This document shows positions 1-15,730 of a stretch of DNA of 15,730 nucleotides, piece by piece. The stretch's first letter is position 1. Each line of letters opens with the position of its first letter. The notes beneath the pieces are model-generated. The model did not search any database. It worked only from the letters and a program-made list of their open reading frames with translations, and had not been told where the DNA came from. The DNA lies in the IMG/VR virus record IMGVR_UViG_2563366867_000010. One strand, written 5' to 3'. The position numbers and the translations under genes were made by a program. Source of the DNA: a virus (Duplodnaviria; Heunggongvirae; Uroviricota; Caudoviricetes).

Positions 1-135
1 CTACGAAGACAGCGACCTCCGTCTGGCCGGTTCGGATCCGTACCTCGCGAGGTCTTTCCTCGTTACCAGTGCCGTCACTATGACGGTTAAACAGATGACG
101 ATCAGGGCGATTAACATCGCCTTTTGCTGCTTCAT
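1..135 (-). CDS. hokD: Hok/Gef-family small membrane toxin homolog (HokD/RelF-like); C-terminal region frameshifted, possibly a pseudogene
   Basis: Translation from ATG at 135..133 gives MKQQKAMLIALIVICLTVIVTALVTRKDL, which matches the HokD N-terminus and transmembrane segment as I recall it. AAGGAG lies 9 nt upstream. After codon DL the frame diverges (..ARYGSEPARRRSLSS*), while the conserved Hok tail EVRIRTGQTEVAVF is encoded in the adjacent frame (about 47 down to 4), consistent with a 1-nt deletion at the conserved Cys codon. Stop sits at 3..1, the window edge. Confidence 0.7.
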   Translation of the reverse strand: MKQQKAMLIALIVICLTVIVTALVTRKDLARYGSEPARRRSLSS

Positions 136-310
136 AGCCTGCTTCTCCTTGCCTTTCGGCACGTAAGAGGCTAACCTGCATGTGTTCAGCATGAAATTGG
201 CCTCAGATTAATGTTAAGCGTCTTGCAGGACACGTAATGTTAACTGGGGCTTTTCTCCGTCTGCCTTACGGCAGCATGCCCGAGGCAGACCCCCTCAAGC
301 ACCCGCAGTC

Positions 311-5513: not shown

Positions 5514-5583
5514 GATACTTTAGCATCCATAAATATACAACAAATGAATCTAAAGTATCAAGAATATGTGCTACTTTAGTATC
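5514..5583. promoter_or_regulatory. Operator cluster (three 14-bp palindromic sites) with divergent promoters between the Cro-position gene and the repressor
   Basis: Sites GATACTTTAGCATC (5514..5527), GAATCTAAAGTATC (5546..5559) and GCTACTTTAGTATC (5570..5583), all variants of GATACTTTAGTATC. Candidate minus-strand promoter: -35 TTGATA (rc of 5556..5561), -10 TATATT (rc of 5532..5537), 18-nt spacer. Confidence 0.65.
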
Positions 5584-5607
5584 GACCGAAAAAACAGGAG
5601 AGATAAA

Positions 5608-6264
5608 ATGAGAACTTTGGGAGAGCGCCTTAGCAGCGCCAGGCAACGGGCAGGATTGACACAAGATGCATTAGCAAAAAAAGCCGGCATAACCCGCGTG
5701 GCTATAAGCAAAGCAGAGCAAGGACTTACTAAAAGCTTCAACGGAGATACTTTATTAAAGGTAGCCACAGCCCTAAACTGCTCTCCACAATGGCTACAAA
5801 ATGGAGAAGAACAATCTGTAAACTGGGAAAACAATGTTAAGAGTTGTCCTCAAAAAGACGCATTTCATTCCTATCCCGTTATTAACTGGGTCCAGGCCGG
5901 ACTATTCTCTACTGCTGGAGATGATTACAGCATGTATGACCATGATAACTGGAGACATTCTGTCAAATATGCAGGTGAAAGAGGTTTTTGGCTTGAAGTA
6001 CATGGTGATTCAATGACCTCGCCTGTTGGAATCACCTTTCCTGAGGGTATGTCTATTCTCGTAAACCCAGACAAAGCTGTACATTCAGGCTGTTACGTTA
6101 TCGCAAGAAAAAAATCAACCAACGAAGCAACATTCAAAAAATATGTGACTGAAATGGGAAGATCTTTCCTGAAACCACTCAATCCTCAGTATCCCATCAT
6201 TGAAATAGATGATGATTGTGAAATCGTCGGCGTGATCGTGGATGCCCGATGGGATATTTTCTAA
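5608..6264 (+). CDS. CI-like prophage repressor (N-terminal HTH_XRE + C-terminal S24 LexA-type peptidase domain)
   Basis: N-terminal HTH (LGERLSSARQRAGLTQDALAKKAGITRVAISKAEQG), Ala-Gly autocleavage context (VQAGLF), catalytic Ser in GDSM and Lys in FKKY. AGGAG lies 7 nt upstream of ATG 5608; the ORF-track start at 5566 is probably too far upstream. Confidence 0.85.
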   Translation: MRTLGERLSSARQRAGLTQDALAKKAGITRVAISKAEQGLTKSFNGDTLLKVATALNCSPQWLQNGEEQSVNWENNVKSCPQKDAFHSYPVINWVQAGLFSTAGDDYSMYDHDNWRHSVKYAGERGFWLEVHGDSMTSPVGITFPEGMSILVNPDKAVHSGCYVIARKKSTNEATFKKYVTEMGRSFLKPLNPQYPIIEIDDDCEIVGVIVDARWDIF

Positions 6265-6952: not shown

Positions 6953-7149
6953 AAACTCCCCTGATTATGCTTGAGGAAGTGGCAGCAGAAATAAAAGAAA
7001 ACACGTCAATGCTTGAGTTTATATTTAAAAACTCTGGTGATAACGGAGAGACAGATGATTTCTTACTTTGTATGATTCGTTCCATGAATAAAACCTGTGA
7101 AAAGGCTTACGAGTATGTTGATGCTCTGAGAACGAATAAAGGAAATTAA
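6949..7149 (+). CDS. Small acidic protein, paralog family member 2
   Basis: 66 aa. Its start overlaps the preceding stop (ATGA). Motif LEFIFKNSGDNGETDDFLLCMIRSMNKTCEKAYEY aligns with member 3 (LLQVIIDSGDIGSPDALNMMNCLFRSLSCTADKAEKH). Confidence 0.6.
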   Translation: MKTPLIMLEEVAAEIKENTSMLEFIFKNSGDNGETDDFLLCMIRSMNKTCEKAYEYVDALRTNKGN

Positions 7150-7221
7150 ACAGACAATCATACATAAAAACATGACGGTCTGCGGTCGGGAGTTCTCACT
7201 ATTTTAAAATGGGGATGACAC

Positions 7222-7320
7222 ATGAAAGACAAACATGCCTATAAAACCGCTTTATTAATGGCTGATGCCGGATACTGGTCAGTTGCAGTATTGTTTCTCA
7301 AAAAGGCATACGGGAAATAA
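7222..7320 (+). CDS. Possible 32-aa micro-protein (MKDKHAYKTALLMADAGYWSVAVLFLKKAYGK)
   Basis: Not in the ORF track (too short). GGGGA 6 nt upstream of ATG 7222. Moderately hydrophobic core. Ends 3 nt before the next gene start. Confidence 0.3.
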   Translation: MKDKHAYKTALLMADAGYWSVAVLFLKKAYGK

Positions 7321-7323
7321 CAA

Positions 7324-7686
7324 ATGAAAGATGAATACATTTCTGCATATCGTCGCCGCATAACGGTTGCAGCACTGCGGCGGATGAAACGAAAAACAGG
7401 AAGTAACCTCCTCACTGTAAAGCGTCATGATGGAGAGTTAACAACTATTGAAATAACAGAACAGTTCATAAGCCAGTTGCTATTACGATTTGAAGGCGTT
7501 ACCCGTGGTGAGTTTGGGCGGAAAGATGGTGAAACAGCAATACGCACTGCATACCAGGATGCTGTCGGTATCAACCAACATGGTGAGTATCTGACTGAAT
7601 CAGGAAAGTTAATCATTGATGAACTTTTGAATGAATGCATCGATTACATTAAAGAGGGGCATATTACCAGATGCGTTAATCATTAA
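7324..7686 (+). CDS. Hypothetical protein with arginine-rich N-terminus
   Basis: 120-aa ORF. The N-terminus YRRRITVAALRRMKRKTG is Arg/Lys-rich. No other motif recognised. Confidence 0.55.
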   Translation: MKDEYISAYRRRITVAALRRMKRKTGSNLLTVKRHDGELTTIEITEQFISQLLLRFEGVTRGEFGRKDGETAIRTAYQDAVGINQHGEYLTESGKLIIDELLNECIDYIKEGHITRCVNH

Positions 7687-7726
7687 CAGCATAGCTCCTC
7701 TCCCGGAATAACGGAGATAATGAAAA

Positions 7727-7921
7727 ATGAATAATTGCGTTGAAGTACTCGATAATGTCCACTGCGAGATAACAGAAAGCCTGTCTTTGTTACAGGTGAT
7801 TATTGACAGCGGTGATATTGGTTCACCAGATGCGCTAAACATGATGAATTGTCTTTTCCGCTCATTATCCTGTACAGCAGACAAAGCAGAAAAGCATCTG
7901 TGCCGGACTGAAAACGAATAA
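7727..7921 (+). CDS. Small acidic protein, paralog family member 3
   Basis: 64 aa with GGAG 10 nt upstream. Aligns by eye with 6761..6952 and 6949..7149. Confidence 0.6.
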   Translation: MNNCVEVLDNVHCEITESLSLLQVIIDSGDIGSPDALNMMNCLFRSLSCTADKAEKHLCRTENE

Positions 7922-8189
7922 CATTATTTAAGAACAGTAATTAATTTACAGCTTTATTGTCGGGGATTTTTACAACCTGAAAAGGCCAGGCTGTATCACA
8001 GATATATCGCAACAAACGAATTGCTGAGCCACATCTTCTGGCTGCGCTCAGAGTGAATAAAAGTAATTAACACCGGATGAACACGGAGTAACCATGAAAG
8101 AAGAACCTGAAATCATTGAAATTAATTCTGAAGAATTCACAGAAAACGAATGACTGACAGAAACCGATCCGCGCGTTCTGGCGCTGACA

Positions 8190-8654
8190 ATGGAAGGATA
8201 CATCGTATTTCCACCTTTCTTCAGTGATGCGGAATACAGTGCAATAAATAATGCCGGAATCGACCGTGCTTTTCATAAATACGAACTCGATTGCGGCCCT
8301 GTTTACAGAGTCTGCCGCCACGGACAAGTTAAGAAATGCTTCACGCGAAAAACGGCCATCATACATCTCGCTCATTTTATGACAACGAAGGTATTCGAAA
8401 GTTCAGGTTTTGAAAAACGTCTGCCTGACCAGCGCCTGATGCATCCGGAATATGGAGAAGTCTTTCATCCGGGAGAAATTACGCCCGAATACTACAGAGC
8501 TCACGGGCGTTGTTTTTATCGCCTGTTGCGCATCCTTGCACGCAGAAAACAGTTTGATGCCTGGATGGAAAAATACAACGCCTGGATTGATCAGTATTGC
8601 CGGCTTGTCGCGCAAAGACCATTTAAGAAGAGAGCAAACCATGACTGCAACTGA
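8190..8654 (+). CDS. Hypothetical Cys/His-containing protein; may be the remnant of a longer gene starting at 8094
   Basis: 154-aa ORF with CGPVYRVCRHGQVKKC and several His. No Shine-Dalgarno before ATG 8190, but a well-placed GGAG precedes an in-frame ATG at 8094, separated from this ORF only by TGA at 8151..8153. Confidence 0.5.
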   Translation: MEGYIVFPPFFSDAEYSAINNAGIDRAFHKYELDCGPVYRVCRHGQVKKCFTRKTAIIHLAHFMTTKVFESSGFEKRLPDQRLMHPEYGEVFHPGEITPEYYRAHGRCFYRLLRILARRKQFDAWMEKYNAWIDQYCRLVAQRPFKKRANHDCN

Positions 8655-10115: not shown

Positions 10116-10470
10116 CACTACTGCGGCAATCATGAACTACGACCCGAACATGACATTATGCGGCCGCATGGCAAGACAGACGGTTCGTCTGACACTCGGG
10201 CAATGGGAGTACCGCGAAACATTTGAAGTGGACGTTGTCGGCAATCTGACGGGGCTGGATGTAATAACCTGCGCAATTGAAAACCTTTATGAAGAGCTGC
10301 CGTATGAAGAAGCACAGGATGAATATACCGGTGAAACTAACATTATGGCCACAATACAGATCGGTGATCTTGCATGTACGGATGAGGACATGCTCGGCGA
10401 AGCATGGCTGGCAGGTATGCTTATTGCAGCAGAAATTATCAGCATTGAACCAGCAGGAACACTTTCATAA
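10108..10470 (+). CDS. Hypothetical acidic protein
   Basis: 120 aa from ATG 10108 with GGAGG 8 nt upstream. Overlaps the preceding stop by 8 bp. Confidence 0.55.
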   Translation: MNSTTAAIMNYDPNMTLCGRMARQTVRLTLGQWEYRETFEVDVVGNLTGLDVITCAIENLYEELPYEEAQDEYTGETNIMATIQIGDLACTDEDMLGEAWLAGMLIAAEIISIEPAGTLS

Positions 10471-10486
10471 CGGAGATCGCCATCAG

Positions 10487-10711
10487 ATGATTATTTCATT
10501 CACCGATTACGGCGAACAGGCAAAACTGATTATCACCAGTTCCCGCCTGACATTGCGAAAACATAATCGTGTCGTTGATGCGGTACTTCTGTGCACGCCG
10601 GACATCACAGAAAGCCGGAGCGGCTTTTTCCTGGTTAAGTCGTCATTATCAGGAAAAACACGCGACATCCTGCGCGCCTACAAAACAGCAACAAGGGAGT
10701 CTGAACGATGA
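10487..10711 (+). CDS. Hypothetical small protein
   Basis: 74 aa from ATG 10487 with GGAG 11 nt upstream. Its stop overlaps the next start (ATGA). Confidence 0.5.
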   Translation: MIISFTDYGEQAKLIITSSRLTLRKHNRVVDAVLLCTPDITESRSGFFLVKSSLSGKTRDILRAYKTATRESER

Positions 10712-11070
10712 AAGAAGCTGATCTGAAAGCACTGCGTGACGCCGCACAAAATACCGTATATGGAGACAAGGGATGTGATCTGGAAGCATTTCACTCCCTT
10801 GCCACTCCGCCAGTTATCCTTGCGCTAATCAGTCACATAGAAAATCTGGAGAAAAAACTGGATGAAATCGTAACGTCAGAGATTAGCCCGAAGGCCTGGC
10901 TGAATAACCTTACGGGGGAAGTTTGCAGTATTGATGCCATGCCTGACGCCCGTAATGACAGAGAAACATACACCCCGCTTTATCCTGCCTGGCAGCGCAT
11001 TGCCGCCGCAGATGATAACGGCAGAGTGGCATGGATGTATACGCACAAAAAAGCAGGTTACAGGGTCTAA
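10708..11070 (+). CDS. 5' fragment of an early-left phage gene interrupted by IS4 (possibly Ea22-like; truncated 120-aa product)
   Basis: AGGGAG 8 nt upstream of ATG 10708. The reading frame runs into the IS4 left end, whose first three bases (TAA, 11068..11070) supply the stop codon. The same frame resumes immediately after the right target duplication. Confidence 0.6.
   Translation: MKEADLKALRDAAQNTVYGDKGCDLEAFHSLATPPVILALISHIENLEKKLDEIVTSEISPKAWLNNLTGEVCSIDAMPDARNDRETYTPLYPAWQRIAAADDNGRVAWMYTHKKAGYRV
11056..11067. repeat. Target-site duplication, left copy (GGTTACAGGGTC)
   Basis: An identical 12-mer flanks the IS4 on the other side at 12494..12505. Confidence 0.85.
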
Positions 11071-12493
11071 TGCCAGTCAGTTAAGCAACTGACTGGCTCT
11101 TTTTCGGGGCTGTGGGGTATTTCCAGGGCCTCTCCTTTACCACTCTCGGGAAGGCCCTTTCCCTTCTTGTCGGTAATTTCACAAGTTGTCCCATACTTGC
11201 AAGATCGCGCATCAGCTCCGGTATACGTCCCGGTGAAGCGCCCTGCAATGTCATCAGCATTCTCATCACCATTCCGCATGATTCTGAGAAACTCAGTTGA
11301 TTCGGCCAGTAACCTTTCAGATGTTCCGCCATTTTAATCATCTGATATCTCACCAGATTATAAGCCAGTAAGACACCCCACAGCTCTTGCTCCACAAGCT
11401 CCGGCTTTTTACTTCTCAGCGTCAGCCTGCTCCGTTGCATCGTCTGTTTTATCTCCCTGTATCCCAGTTCGATTTCCCAGCGATGACTGTACAGATCCCC
11501 CATTTCTCCTCCGGGGAAGCGCATGGCGTCCGTCATCGACGTCAGCAGATGGCAGACTTTTCCTTTGCGCGTCACGGTCAGCAGGCGGGCAGTCACTTCA
11601 TTTCCCAGTCCCGGCCACTTTTTTCGTGCCTGCGGGCTGGTTTTCAGCTTCACCAGATGATCGCCTTTACCCAGTTTTCTGATCTCTTCATATTGCGCTC
11701 CCTTTCTGAGAGGTATCATCCAGTGGCGGTGTTCTCCCGCCAGGCTCCAGGCATTTAACAGTCCCAGTGAGTAATAACCTTTATCCATTAACGTCAGAGT
11801 GTTATCGCCGGTTTGTTCTATAAGTTGCTCAGCAAGCTCATTTTCGCTGTTCTTCATCGTGCCGAAGGCTGCAGCCGTCAGCAGATGGCTGGTCAGTTCC
11901 ATCTGGCAGACCATTTTGACCTGCGGGTAGAGCGCCGGGTTCCCGGCATGTGTCTGGCGGGGGAAGGCTGCATCGTTCTCTGGTGTATCCGGTGTGCGCC
12001 AGAACACACCATCGATGGCCAGCAGGGTCAGGCCGCACCAGTGCGGATGCGGCGTGGCGTTATGCCAGAGCTGCGCTGTTTTCGTGAACACGCGGCGGAC
12101 AGCCTCACTTCCCAGGCGCTGGCGGGCCTGAATAACGGCACTGGGGGCAACGAAGGGGCGATTGCCCGGCAGCATGATGTCCAGGCGATTCACAATCTGG
12201 TGAAGAGGTTCTTTACGCTCAAGCGCCATGCCAACAATACACCAGACCATCATTTCGAGGGGAAGACGGCGCTTGCGTAGCGTTACAGTACCTGATTCGG
12301 CAAGGCAACGAGAGATGAGTTCGGGGTCGAGGTAATCCCCCAGAGAAGTCAGTGGGTTACGCAGAGAATCGTAACGGGATACCAGATCAAGAGCCTGTCC
12401 AATGTGCATAAAAAAATCCGGAAACAAGTGAGCGTTTCCGGATTCTTACACAGCCACTGGATCGGTCAACTGATCCTTAACTGATCGGCATTA
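11068..12493. mobile_element. Insertion sequence IS4, complete copy (1426 bp)
   Basis: Terminal inverted repeats TAATGCCAGTCAGTTAAG (11068..11085) and rc TAATGCCGATCAGTTAAG (12476..12493). A single transposase ORF fills the element. Flanked by a 12-bp direct repeat. Confidence 0.9.
11081..12409 (-). CDS. insG: IS4 transposase (DDE, IS4 family)
   Basis: 442-aa translation beginning [40 protein letters not shown].. matches the IS4 transposase as I recall it. The ORF-track start at 12427 is a TTG; the true ATG is at 12409. Confidence 0.9.
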
Positions 12494-12505
12494 GGTTACA
12501 GGGTC
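12494..12505. repeat. Target-site duplication, right copy (GGTTACAGGGTC)
   Basis: Identical to 11056..11067 and directly abuts the IS4 right inverted repeat. Confidence 0.85.
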
Positions 12506-12511
12506 CCCACA

Positions 12512-13048
12512 ATGACATCGTGGGAAAGTCTTGCAGAAGAGCGGGGAGGCTCTCTGGATAAATATATCGTCAGTCCACTATTCACTGTTCCTCAGATACC
12601 GCCAGTGAGAACAGAACAGGATGCTTACCCTGATGTGCAGGTTTCATGGGATGCAACACGTCACTATGTCAACGGCTGGAACGCCTGCCGACAGGCAATG
12701 CTGACGACGGCAGAAAAAGTACTTGATGTGCGAATCCCTGAATATATCGGACGCTGGCTTTCCGCTGCACTTCATGATCAGAACTCATGCGAGGAAATGA
12801 AAAACGATATACGACGCTTCCTGGCTGAATACCACCATGTTCCATCGAAATATAACGGCTGGCGACTTGTACCGGACAAGTTAACCGAACAGATGAAGTA
12901 CCGGATTGTGCCACTACTGGCGACCATCAAGCCCCGCAGCGTCGATGAATATGACCGCTCAGGAGAAAACGCACAATTTCTTGAATGGGTATGGACGCAA
13001 CTGATGGAAGCCACGAAATTCGCGTATGAGGGCTCAGTGAATGGGTGA
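12512..13048 (+). CDS. 3' fragment of the IS4-interrupted early-left gene (178-aa ORF from an internal ATG)
   Basis: After conceptual removal of IS4 and one duplication copy, this ORF is in frame with 10708..11067 (..KKAGYRV-PT-MTSWESLAEE..). Whether the internal ATG 12512 is used is unknown. Confidence 0.55.
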   Translation: MTSWESLAEERGGSLDKYIVSPLFTVPQIPPVRTEQDAYPDVQVSWDATRHYVNGWNACRQAMLTTAEKVLDVRIPEYIGRWLSAALHDQNSCEEMKNDIRRFLAEYHHVPSKYNGWRLVPDKLTEQMKYRIVPLLATIKPRSVDEYDRSGENAQFLEWVWTQLMEATKFAYEGSVNG

Positions 13049-13283
13049 AATGGTTGATATTAACGATGAACTGGTCCGCACAGTAATTACCGTTGATGAC
13101 GGATGCGACCATACCCAGCGTTTTATCTGGATGATGAATACACGGCGTAATATCAGAAACAAAGTGTTCCGGCACGAACCAAAGCCAGTCAGGGTGACAA
13201 AGATACGCATTGAAGCCAGAAAACGCCGCAAATACAGGCCACGGAAGGCCTGGGCCCCAGCGCAACCGGATGAACTGGCATAA
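13041..13283 (+). CDS. Hypothetical protein with basic C-terminus
   Basis: 80 aa with GAGGG 8 nt upstream. Start overlaps the preceding stop. The C-terminus is Arg/Lys-rich (KIRIEARKRRKYRPRKAW). Confidence 0.5.
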   Translation: MGEMVDINDELVRTVITVDDGCDHTQRFIWMMNTRRNIRNKVFRHEPKPVRVTKIRIEARKRRKYRPRKAWAPAQPDELA

Positions 13284-13303
13284 AGACAGCAGGAGAATAA
13301 GTC

Positions 13304-13457: not shown

Positions 13458-13712
13458 ATGGAAACAATCATCTATCAGATAACGCCCAGCAAATGGTGCA
13501 CAGAAAGAACCCTTATTGCTGCAACTGGACTGAAATCAGGAACCATTGCCAGAGCAAGAAAAAAATCCTGGTTACTGGGGAAAGAATACCGTCATTACGC
13601 AGCAGAAGGAGAGCCCGGGCCTTTCAGTGAATGTGTATACAACATTGAGGAAATTATGCGCTGGATCGAAAACCAGAAACAACCAGGTGCCAAAAATGCA
13701 AGTTCCGGTTAA
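13458..13712 (+). CDS. xis: Excisionase-like protein (lambda Xis-type winged helix)
   Basis: 84 aa immediately upstream of the integrase. The pattern ITPSKWCTERTLIAATGLKSGTIARARKK..GKEYRH parallels lambda Xis (LTLQEWNARQRRPRSLETVRRWVRE..GREYLF). Confidence 0.7.
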   Translation: METIIYQITPSKWCTERTLIAATGLKSGTIARARKKSWLLGKEYRHYAAEGEPGPFSECVYNIEEIMRWIENQKQPGAKNASSG

Positions 13713-13745: not shown

Positions 13746-15035
13746 ATGAGTAACGCATCATACCCGACAGGCGTTGAAAACCATGGCGGATCACTCCGCA
13801 TATGGTTTCACTATAACGGCAAACGTGTCAGAGAAAACCTCGGTGTTCCTGACACCGCCAAAAACCGGAAGATCGCAGGTGAACTTCGCACTTCCGTTTG
13901 TTTTGCAATAAGAATGGGGAGCTTCGACTACGCCGCGCAGTTCCCTAATTCCCCTAACCTGAAACATTTTGGTCTGGGAAAAAAAGAGATAACCATTAAG
14001 GCACTTTCGGAAAAATGGCTTGAGCTTAAGAAAATGGAAATAACAACAAATGCCATGGTCAGATACAAATCAGCTATCCGAAATTGCCTTGACTGCCTTG
14101 GAGGGAACAAACTGGCATCATCAATTACACAGGAAGATGTTCTCATTTTTCGTAAAGAATTATTAACGGGATATCAGTTGCCAAGAAAAATTCAGAGGAA
14201 GCCTATTAAAGGTCGTAGTGTACCTACTGTAAATAGCTATATGACAATTATCTCCGGGATGTTCCGTTTTGCGGCAAACAATGGGTATATAGGCAAAAAC
14301 CCTTTCAGTGAGCTTCCATCACTGAAAAGAGCGAAAACACCTCCCGATCCACTAACAAAAGATGAGTTTGCCAGACTGATTGATGCGTGCCACCACCAGC
14401 AAACTAAAAATTTCTGGTCGCTGGCTGTATATACCGGGATGCGGCATGGCGAACTGTGTGGGCTGGCATGGGAGGATATCGATCTGGAAGCGGGTACCTT
14501 GACCGTCAAAAGGAATTACACTCAGACAAAGGAATTTACACTACCCAAAACAGATGCAGGAACAAACAGGGTAATACAACTCATACAGCCAGCAATTGAC
14601 GTATTAAAAAATCAGGCGACATTAACCAGGCTTGGTAAACAATATCAGATAGAAGTAAAGCTGCGAGAGTATGGCCGGACAAGCACTCACTCATGCAGCT
14701 TTGTTTTCAATCCTCAGATATTAGATCGCACAGGTAACTCAGGAGTTCATTATGCCGTAACATCCATCAACAGAACATGGGAATCTGCATTAAAACGAGC
14801 AAAAATTCGCCATAGAAAAGCGTATCAGTCTCGGCATACTTATGCTTGCTGGGCTTTAACTGCCGGAGCAAATCCAAACTTCATAGCCAACCAGATGGGA
14901 CATGCGAATGCCCAGATGGTTTACAATGTTTACGGTGCATGGATGAAAGACAATAACCAGTCCCAGGTAGAAGTACTAAACAGAAAGCTATGTACTTATG
15001 TCCCACAGGTGCCCCAACGACTAAACAAAGCATAG
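13746..15035 (+). CDS. int: Tyrosine recombinase / phage integrase (lambda Int family)
   Basis: 429 aa with GGAGG upstream. C-terminal catalytic-domain signatures: R in YTGMRHGELCGLAWEDID, H..R in SRHTYACWALTAGANP, GHANAQMVYNVYGAWM with the presumed catalytic Tyr. Lies next to xis at the prophage end. Confidence 0.9.
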   Translation: MSNASYPTGVENHGGSLRIWFHYNGKRVRENLGVPDTAKNRKIAGELRTSVCFAIRMGSFDYAAQFPNSPNLKHFGLGKKEITIKALSEKWLELKKMEITTNAMVRYKSAIRNCLDCLGGNKLASSITQEDVLIFRKELLTGYQLPRKIQRKPIKGRSVPTVNSYMTIISGMFRFAANNGYIGKNPFSELPSLKRAKTPPDPLTKDEFARLIDACHHQQTKNFWSLAVYTGMRHGELCGLAWEDIDLEAGTLTVKRNYTQTKEFTLPKTDAGTNRVIQLIQPAIDVLKNQATLTRLGKQYQIEVKLREYGRTSTHSCSFVFNPQILDRTGNSGVHYAVTSINRTWESALKRAKIRHRKAYQSRHTYACWALTAGANPNFIANQMGHANAQMVYNVYGAWMKDNNQSQVEVLNRKLCTYVPQVPQRLNKA

Positions 15036-15079
15036 AATATATTTTTAAAATCAAATAGTTAATACATAGGTACAAGTAC

Positions 15080-15730
15080 ATGAACAATATGAACGTAATT
15101 ATTGCCGATGACCATCCGATAGTCTTGTTCGGTATTCGCAAATCACTTGAGCAAATTGAGTGGGTGAATGTTGTCGGCGAATTTGAAGACTCTACAGCAC
15201 TGATCAACAACTTGCCGAAACTGGATGCACATGTGTTGATTACCGATCTCTCCATGCCTGGCGATAAGTACGGCGATGGCATTACCTTAATCAAGTACAT
15301 CAAGCGCCATTTCCCAAGCCTGTCGATCATTGTTCTGACCATGAACAACAACCCGGCGATTCTTAGTGCGGTATTGGATCTGGATATCGAAGGGATCGTG
15401 CTGAAACAAGGTGCACCGACCGATCTGCCGAAAGCTCTCGCCGCGCTGCAGAAAGGGAAGAAATTTACCCCGGAAAGCGTTTCTCGCCTGTTGGAAAAAA
15501 TCAGTGCTGGTGGTTATGGTGACAAGCGTCTCTCGCCAAAAGAGAGTGAAGTTCTGCGCCTGTTTGCGGAAGGCTTCCTGGTGACCGAGATCGCTAAAAA
15601 GCTGAACCGCAGTATTAAAACCATCAGTAGCCAGAAGAAATCTGCGATGATGAAGCTGGGTGTCGAGAACGATATTGCTCTGCTGAATTATCTCTCTTCT
15701 GTGACGTTAAGTCCGGCAGATAAAGACTAA
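15080..15730 (+). CDS. rcsB: Response regulator RcsB (Rcs phosphorelay, LuxR/FixJ-type HTH)
   Basis: 216-aa translation MNNMNVIIADDHPIVLFGIRKSLEQIEWVNVVGEFEDSTALINNLPKLDAHVLITDLSMPGDKYGDG..LSPADKD matches E. coli RcsB essentially end to end as I recall it. Receiver domain with phospho-acceptor Asp in LITDLSMPG; C-terminal LuxR-type HTH. Confidence 0.95.
   Translation: MNNMNVIIADDHPIVLFGIRKSLEQIEWVNVVGEFEDSTALINNLPKLDAHVLITDLSMPGDKYGDGITLIKYIKRHFPSLSIIVLTMNNNPAILSAVLDLDIEGIVLKQGAPTDLPKALAALQKGKKFTPESVSRLLEKISAGGYGDKRLSPKESEVLRLFAEGFLVTEIAKKLNRSIKTISSQKKSAMMKLGVENDIALLNYLSSVTLSPADKD

Follow-up and report, generated by a model that had tools for sequence, protein, structure and literature searches.

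The insertions of IS1, IS2 and IS4 in gal, together with insertions of insertion sequences (IS) in the early genes of lambda, are the classical examples of polar IS insertions. Elements of the IS4 subgroup are 1400–1650 bp long, have -AATR ends and produce 10–13-bp target repeats, and a striking target-arm specificity has been noted for them (De Palmenaer et al., PMC2266710). In mutation-accumulation lines of Escherichia coli K-12, IS4 was found to be active but rare: it contributed 8 of the 758 new insertions (PMC5009759). Here we analyze a stretch of 15,730 nucleotides, the IMG/VR record IMGVR_UViG_2563366867_000010 (hereinafter the window), which is the regulatory, replication and early-left arms of a lambdoid prophage and harbors a complete IS4 at positions 11068..12493. 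According to our analysis, this IS4 inserted itself into an accessory gene of 300 codons in a lambdoid prophage of E. coli and disrupted it; the probability of this reading is estimated as about 0.93.

The coordinates of the element were checked by script. The window contains GGTTACAGGGTC in exactly two places, 11056..11067 (left copy) and 12494..12505 (right copy), and the 1426 bp enclosed by these copies (11068..12493, minus strand) have 0 mismatches to the annotated IS4 of K-12 MG1655 (NC_000913.3 4502090..4503515). The terminal inverted repeats of 18 bp, TAATGCCAGTCAGTTAAG at the transposase-distal end (11068..11085) and the reverse complement TAATGCCGATCAGTTAAG at the transposase-proximal end (12476..12493), agree in 16 of 18 positions, and both ends of the element start with TAATGCC. 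In the empty-site alleles the 12-bp sequence is present as a single copy; its duplication was produced by filling in a staggered 12-bp cut of the target. The duplication can be read as 13 bp as well, the base preceding the left repeat being A, the same as the final base of IS4. The 12-bp reading is preferred because of the symmetric ends of the element and its agreement with the 1426-bp annotation of the K-12 copy. The chance of an exact 12-bp repeat abutting both ends of the IS is about 4^-12, and a 12-bp target duplication without mismatches is what genuine transposition leaves behind.

Deletion of 11068..12505, i.e. of the element with one copy of the repeat, fuses 10708..11067 and 12506..13048 (both plus strand) into a stop-free open reading frame (ORF) of 903 nt encoding 300 aa (script). 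The 5' fragment comprises codons 1–119, its product ends with ..AGYRV, and it is terminated by TAA at 11068..11070, which is the first triplet of IS4. The 3' fragment comprises codons 120–300; the residual ORF within it (12512..13048) starts at the internal Met122 and encodes 178 aa. This geometry agrees in full with the sequence-only reading of the same DNA, which had proposed a complete 1426-bp IS4 at these positions with imperfect 18-bp inverted repeats and a precise 12-bp target duplication, one frame of approximately 300 aa after removal of the element plus one repeat, and a stop codon of the 5' fragment supplied by the end of the IS.

The alleles devoid of the element demonstrate that the two fragments belong to one gene. 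The query 10400..13300 (2901 bp) was compared by megablast with 5,426 complete E. coli genomes, eleven of which match both flanks over 1463 bp, that is over the query minus exactly 1438 bp (IS4 plus one repeat). Both NZ_CP027340.1 and NZ_CP116067.1 contain the restored 1463-bp sequence with 100% identity, and in both the annotation shows one coding sequence of 300 aa for the gene (WP_000656486.1). An ORF of 300 aa with 299–300 of 300 residues identical is present in all 12 fetched empty-site loci spanning the whole gene, four of which are IMG/VR contigs; a fifth IMG/VR empty-site locus (L023), standing outside the 12, ends within the gene at 276 aa. The restored protein covers positions 1–300 of the 300 positions of the profile phrog_24401 (E 1.9e-217). 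The comparison with IS4-free related prophages, suggested as a check of the proposal that a single gene had been split, thus yields one uninterrupted gene.

The exact 5' fragment was found on ~105 contigs and the 3' fragment (178 aa) on ~104, all of which bear the name E. coli. At least 1000 contigs encode the exact intact protein, so the split allele is a minority allele of E. coli. The window is identical base for base to CP048857.1 over the compared 8.4 + 11.7 kb and to a draft contig of JAQOAV01, the same junction being present in the independent assemblies CP048857.1 and JAQOAV010000004.1. The exact left junction is absent from the GTDB representative genomes and from IMG/VR, the IS4 junction was found in none of the complete E. 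coli genomes of RefSeq, and the empty-site pattern is likewise absent from the GTDB representative genomes. The window contains a second pseudogene, a 186-aa gene at 8094..8654 (plus strand) with the mutation W20* (G to A at 8153, stop codon 8151..8153). W20* accompanies the IS4 junction in 3 of 3 loci spanning both sites and is found in 0 empty-site loci. From this distribution we infer that the insertion is probably derived, recent and restricted to one lineage.

It might be supposed that the two ORFs are naturally separate genes with IS4 between them and that the continuity of the frame is coincidental. The 3' fragment does have an ATG (12512) two codons past the junction, and the protein is modular: in an exhaustive HMMER search residues 1–76, ~105–205 and ~232–290 each match different small phage proteins, so that its N-terminal, middle and C-terminal parts find their relatives individually. 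Nevertheless, the cut at residue 119/120 falls within the middle module (the phrog_5117 match spans 107–187 and matches run across 105–192) and not at a module boundary, and the 300-position PHROG profile is matched end to end. Relatives with separate genes ending near ..AGYRV and starting near MTSWES.. were not found; the two fragment proteins occur solely next to the IS4 junction. The supposition is ruled out by the unbroken ORF of every whole-gene empty-site locus and retains practically no probability. Hardly any more credible is an assembly artefact, in which the repeat would have been misplaced in one assembly. IS elements are indeed a frequent source of misassembly, and the RefSeq complete E. 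coli genomes and GTDB representatives lack the junction; against this stand its base-for-base identity in the CP048857.1 chromosome, in the JAQOAV01 draft contig and on ~105 contigs (NCBI, ENA, Logan), as well as the perfect duplication, the mark of a real transposition. It can be asked, finally, whether the form with IS4 is ancestral and the empty alleles result from precise excision, since such excision between target duplications does happen at low frequency. This is very improbable: the intact allele outnumbers it at least tenfold and is found in prophages with differing immunity regions (with repressors of 218 or 219 aa and helix-turn-helix proteins of 136 or 125 aa), whereas the IS4 allele was seen on one haplotype only, which also bears W20*, and the 100% identity of the IS to the K-12 copy argues for a young insertion.

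None of the observations contradicts the insertion as such; its right target arm, though, departs from the consensus of the IS4 sites compared. Six IS4 sites were compared, namely the window, the K-12 copy and four copies from complete genomes (L006–L009). All six have 12-bp duplications, and the arms around them resemble AAAAAAGG-[N12]-CCTTTTTT, a near-palindromic pair of an A-run and a T-run. At the window site the left arm AAAAAAGCA fits this consensus, but the right arm CCCACAATG agrees with it in CC only and is devoid of the T-run present at the other five sites; the consensus itself comes from just six sites. This target preference is consistent with the arm specificity described for the IS4 subgroup (PMC2266710). 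The likeness of the arms also explains why megablast alignments run up to ~30 nt past the IS into unrelated loci.

The sequence-only reading had also considered the prophage to be partly decayed, and this holds in part. W20* on the same haplotype mildly supports it, as the window thus contains a second inactivated gene; in contrast, the replication, Q, lysis, xis and int ORFs examined are intact. Absence of Rz in CP048857.1 was considered and rejected, as its ORF is intact there and was merely not called. In OZ040522.1, a sister chromosome with W20*, an IS21-family element with IstA/IstB interrupts the gene of the cI-like repressor (L016 3023..6095). This suggests that the OZ040522.1 prophage is no longer inducible or viable, because it is a lysogen without repressor. 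Among related prophages at the same site, ISEc8 is inserted in the DUF5406 gene (L001 6259..9071), and in another strain an IS3-family element resides in the early-left operon; this operon seems to be a recurrent sink for IS elements. Taken together, W20*, the element in the repressor gene and these further IS elements lend the idea of partial decay modest support.

The disrupted gene is most probably a null allele, because it is truncated after residue 119 and the remaining 181 codons have neither a promoter of their own nor a strong ribosome-binding site. A pattern scan revealed no promoter-like site on the plus strand between the IS and the 3' ORF, at that end of the IS. The scan of the opposite end yielded an intrinsic-terminator-like hairpin followed by TCTTTTT (11072..11104, plus strand), composed of GCCAGTCAGTT-AAGC-AACTGACTGGC with an 11-bp stem. 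It starts 1 nt past the TAA stop and 4 nt past the IS boundary, is located on the operon strand and is followed by the U-run UCUUUUU. The 60-nt RNA context of the hairpin folds with −25.1 kcal/mol (z = −3.8), and 0 of 200 shuffled sequences fold as well. Transcription of the operon would meet this hairpin and U-run just inside the IS, and past the IS boundary it would yield 1.4 kb of RNA that is not translated and is antisense to the transposase gene, which, as had been pointed out from the letters alone, opposes the operon (minus strand versus plus strand). The hairpin makes it plausible that, as suggested in that same reading, transcription reaching xis and int could be affected. Because of the hairpin with its U-run, the stop of translation at the IS boundary and the 1.4 kb of untranslated RNA, a polar effect is to be expected on the genes downstream (the 80-aa and 48-aa genes, xis and int) if antitermination does not override it. 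We regard the chances of such a polar effect as about even.

Several considerations speak against polarity. Lambdoid early-left transcripts are classically antiterminated, and lambda N was reportedly shown by Adhya, Gottesman and de Crombrugghe in 1974 to suppress the polarity of IS insertions; by analogy, antitermination of the N type could read through the IS4 hairpin. An N-like function and pL were sought in 7100..8100 and were neither identified nor excluded there. This region includes a 120-aa ORF (7324..7686) with an arginine-rich N-terminus, the only match of which is the uncharacterised phrog_1737. In addition, int may have its own promoter. A literature search on IS4 polarity found nothing relevant.

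The insertion might have been selected instead of being neutral: by blocking early-left transcription ahead of xis and int, or by removing an Ea22-like developmental gene, it would help to lock the prophage in the chromosome, a step towards domestication, and it may also alter read-through into rcsB. We consider this unlikely. The allele has persisted enough to appear on ~105 contigs, although clonal hitch-hiking accounts for this frequency equally well. The terminator-like hairpin faces the operon, the same lineage has further inactivating changes in it (W20* and the IS21-family element in the repressor gene of OZ040522.1), and related prophages hold other IS elements there (ISEc8, IS3). Ea22 proteins are reported to be pro-lysogenic (PMC7093339), but the target protein is not a demonstrable member of that family. 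The severing of rcsB from rcsD and from its native upstream region is in line with selection too; the early-left operon, however, is repressed in a lysogen, which limits effects on rcsB to induction. It is unlikely that the terminator-like end of IS4 acts in this way; it would then lock xis and int, immobilising a cargo-rich prophage, and could change phage-derived transcription reaching rcsB during induction. The latter effect is conceivable because only 44 nt separate rcsB from int and the upstream region of rcsB consists of phage DNA alone.

The junction with rcsB has several features of its own. The attachment core TACATGAACAA (11 bp; window 15075..15087, and ~19640..19660 in L019) overlaps the start codon of rcsB (ATG at 15080), and homology to K-12 breaks 3 nt upstream of this ATG. 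The prophage of ~42 kb separates rcsB from rcsD and the native upstream region. The phage arm provides a Shine-Dalgarno-like AGGTA 7 nt upstream of the rcsB ATG (9 nt in K-12), and a promoter-like consensus match is found at 15022..15051. No description of prophage integration at rcsB or rcsD was found in the literature searched.

The surroundings of the split gene conform to the early-left placement proposed from the sequence: upstream of it are a cI-like repressor and a small gene in divergent orientation, and downstream are xis and int. The minus strand encodes Q, a 287-aa protein, primase, helicase and small proteins. The S24-peptidase cI-like repressor gene (5566..6264, plus strand; phrog_4 match) is accompanied by a divergent small gene in the cro position and followed on the plus strand by small genes, an ORF6N anti-repressor-like gene, a DUF5406 gene, a 74-aa gene and the target gene. 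The latter is located four genes upstream of int, the order after it being an 80-aa gene, a 48-aa gene, xis and int and then chromosomal rcsB. The gene order in annotated relatives agrees with the layout of an early-left operon. The gene of 80 aa (13041..13283, plus strand) has a weak phrog_4183 match, and its ATG overlaps the stop codon of the split gene (ATGGGTGA at 13041). A similar overlap of start and stop codons, ATGA at 10708, is found at the other side of the target gene, and translation of these genes is therefore probably coupled; like the hairpin, these overlaps speak for polarity. The excisionase gene (13458..13712, plus strand) matches phrog_539 excisionase (1e-34) and is annotated xisR in relatives. 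The last prophage gene (13746..15035, plus strand) encodes a tyrosine integrase, as follows from its phrog_1 integrase match (7e-83) and the Pfam domains Arm-DNA-bind_2 and Phage_integrase; it ends 44 nt before rcsB.

The closest empty-site relative is a 41.8-kb prophage between rcsD and rcsB with a 933W-like short-tailed architecture and cargo genes but no annotated stx. Cargo occupies the places where Stx phages carry stx and other morons (L014 12453..18152; L019 20233..26584 and 41464..47142). It includes HsdM/HsdS-like methylase and specificity subunits, for which no restriction subunit was seen, a NanS-like SASA esterase, an S6-family (SPATE) autotransporter peptidase and a YadA-like adhesin. 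At the start of the window (1..192, minus strand) there is an intact Hok/Gef-family ORF of 63 aa; the closest empty-site relative has two extra A's in it, and its annotation there gives a frameshift. A search of the phage collection with the upstream flank gave just two distant partial matches.

The transposase gene of the element is intact. InsG is encoded at 11081..12409 (minus strand) as a protein of 442 aa counted from ATG, with 442 of 442 residues identical to K-12 InsG; the ORF extends further, and from the TTG at 12427 it encodes the 448 aa annotated in RefSeq. The protein contains the Pfam domains Nterm_IS4 (3e-33) and DDE_Tnp_1 (3e-31) and matches NCBIfam transpos_IS4_1 with 299.6 bits (cut-off 115). 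A sigma-70 promoter-like site TTGACC-16-TG-AAGAAT (12442..12469, minus strand), recognized as a consensus match only, is found upstream of the gene and points into the IS. By its 1426 bp, -AATR ends, 12-bp duplication and single-ORF DDE transposase with the IS4 N-terminal domain, the element is within the limits of the IS4 subgroup.

The locus is a textbook case of an IS inserted into an accessory gene of a prophage, and the split fragments are already present in public assemblies, where they are annotated as hypothetical proteins; literature searches for the accession numbers found nothing relevant. For annotation it means that 10708..11070 and 12512..13048 are fragments of one pseudogene and that the 1426-bp element is IS4; its significance beyond annotation is small. 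The split allele is a handy clonal marker for one E. coli lineage, and it amounts to a naturally occurring knock-out of an early-left phage gene that is uncharacterised. Should the polar effect prove true, the locus would be one more case of IS-driven prophage immobilisation.

As to the nature of the disrupted protein, the closest described system is the Ead/Ea22 family. Searches of the restored protein against Pfam, NCBIfam and PDB sequences gave no above-threshold relative, and phrog_24401 alone assigns it to a family as a full-length match. Over the last 76 residues it shares 95% identity with the C-terminal end of a 241-aa protein that bears the name ead/Ea22-like. Fusions to DUF551 are frequent among the relatives of the middle module, and some module relatives are joined to Ead_Ea22 domains. 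The match of the N-terminus to Pfam Ead_Ea22 (PF13935) is below the cut-off of 27 bits (14.5 bits, E 0.053, residues 16–52 only); a member of the >90% identical cluster reaches 23.6 bits against the same threshold. A C-terminal tripeptide K/R-G-E is common to the Ea22 proteins compared in PMC7093339; it is absent from the target protein, which ends with ..AYEGSVNG.

The likeness to Ead/Ea22 consists in the location of the gene, which likewise precedes xis by a few genes in the early-left operon, in a similar modular build, the N-terminal part being conserved and the C-terminus exchangeable, and in the NCBI name 'ead/Ea22-like family protein' carried by one member of the >90% identical cluster. 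The difference is that the target protein is sub-threshold in Pfam, ends with ..GSVNG and has neither an NCBIfam match nor a relative of solved structure. The disrupted gene is accordingly filed here under phrog_24401 and would be Ea22-like in position and build only. With the classical polar insertions the locus shares the position of an IS within a polycistronic unit, to which it adds a stop codon and termination signals, so that expression of the distal genes is expected to be reduced; unlike them, it concerns a phage early operon, possibly an antiterminated one, and its polarity is predicted from sequence. The element itself corresponds to IS4 of K-12, the type element of the IS4 family: the sequence, the transposase, the 16/18 match of the repeats and the length of the duplication (12 bp) are the same, and the two copies differ only in their location, the K-12 one residing between yjgZ and nanX and the one described here inside a prophage gene.

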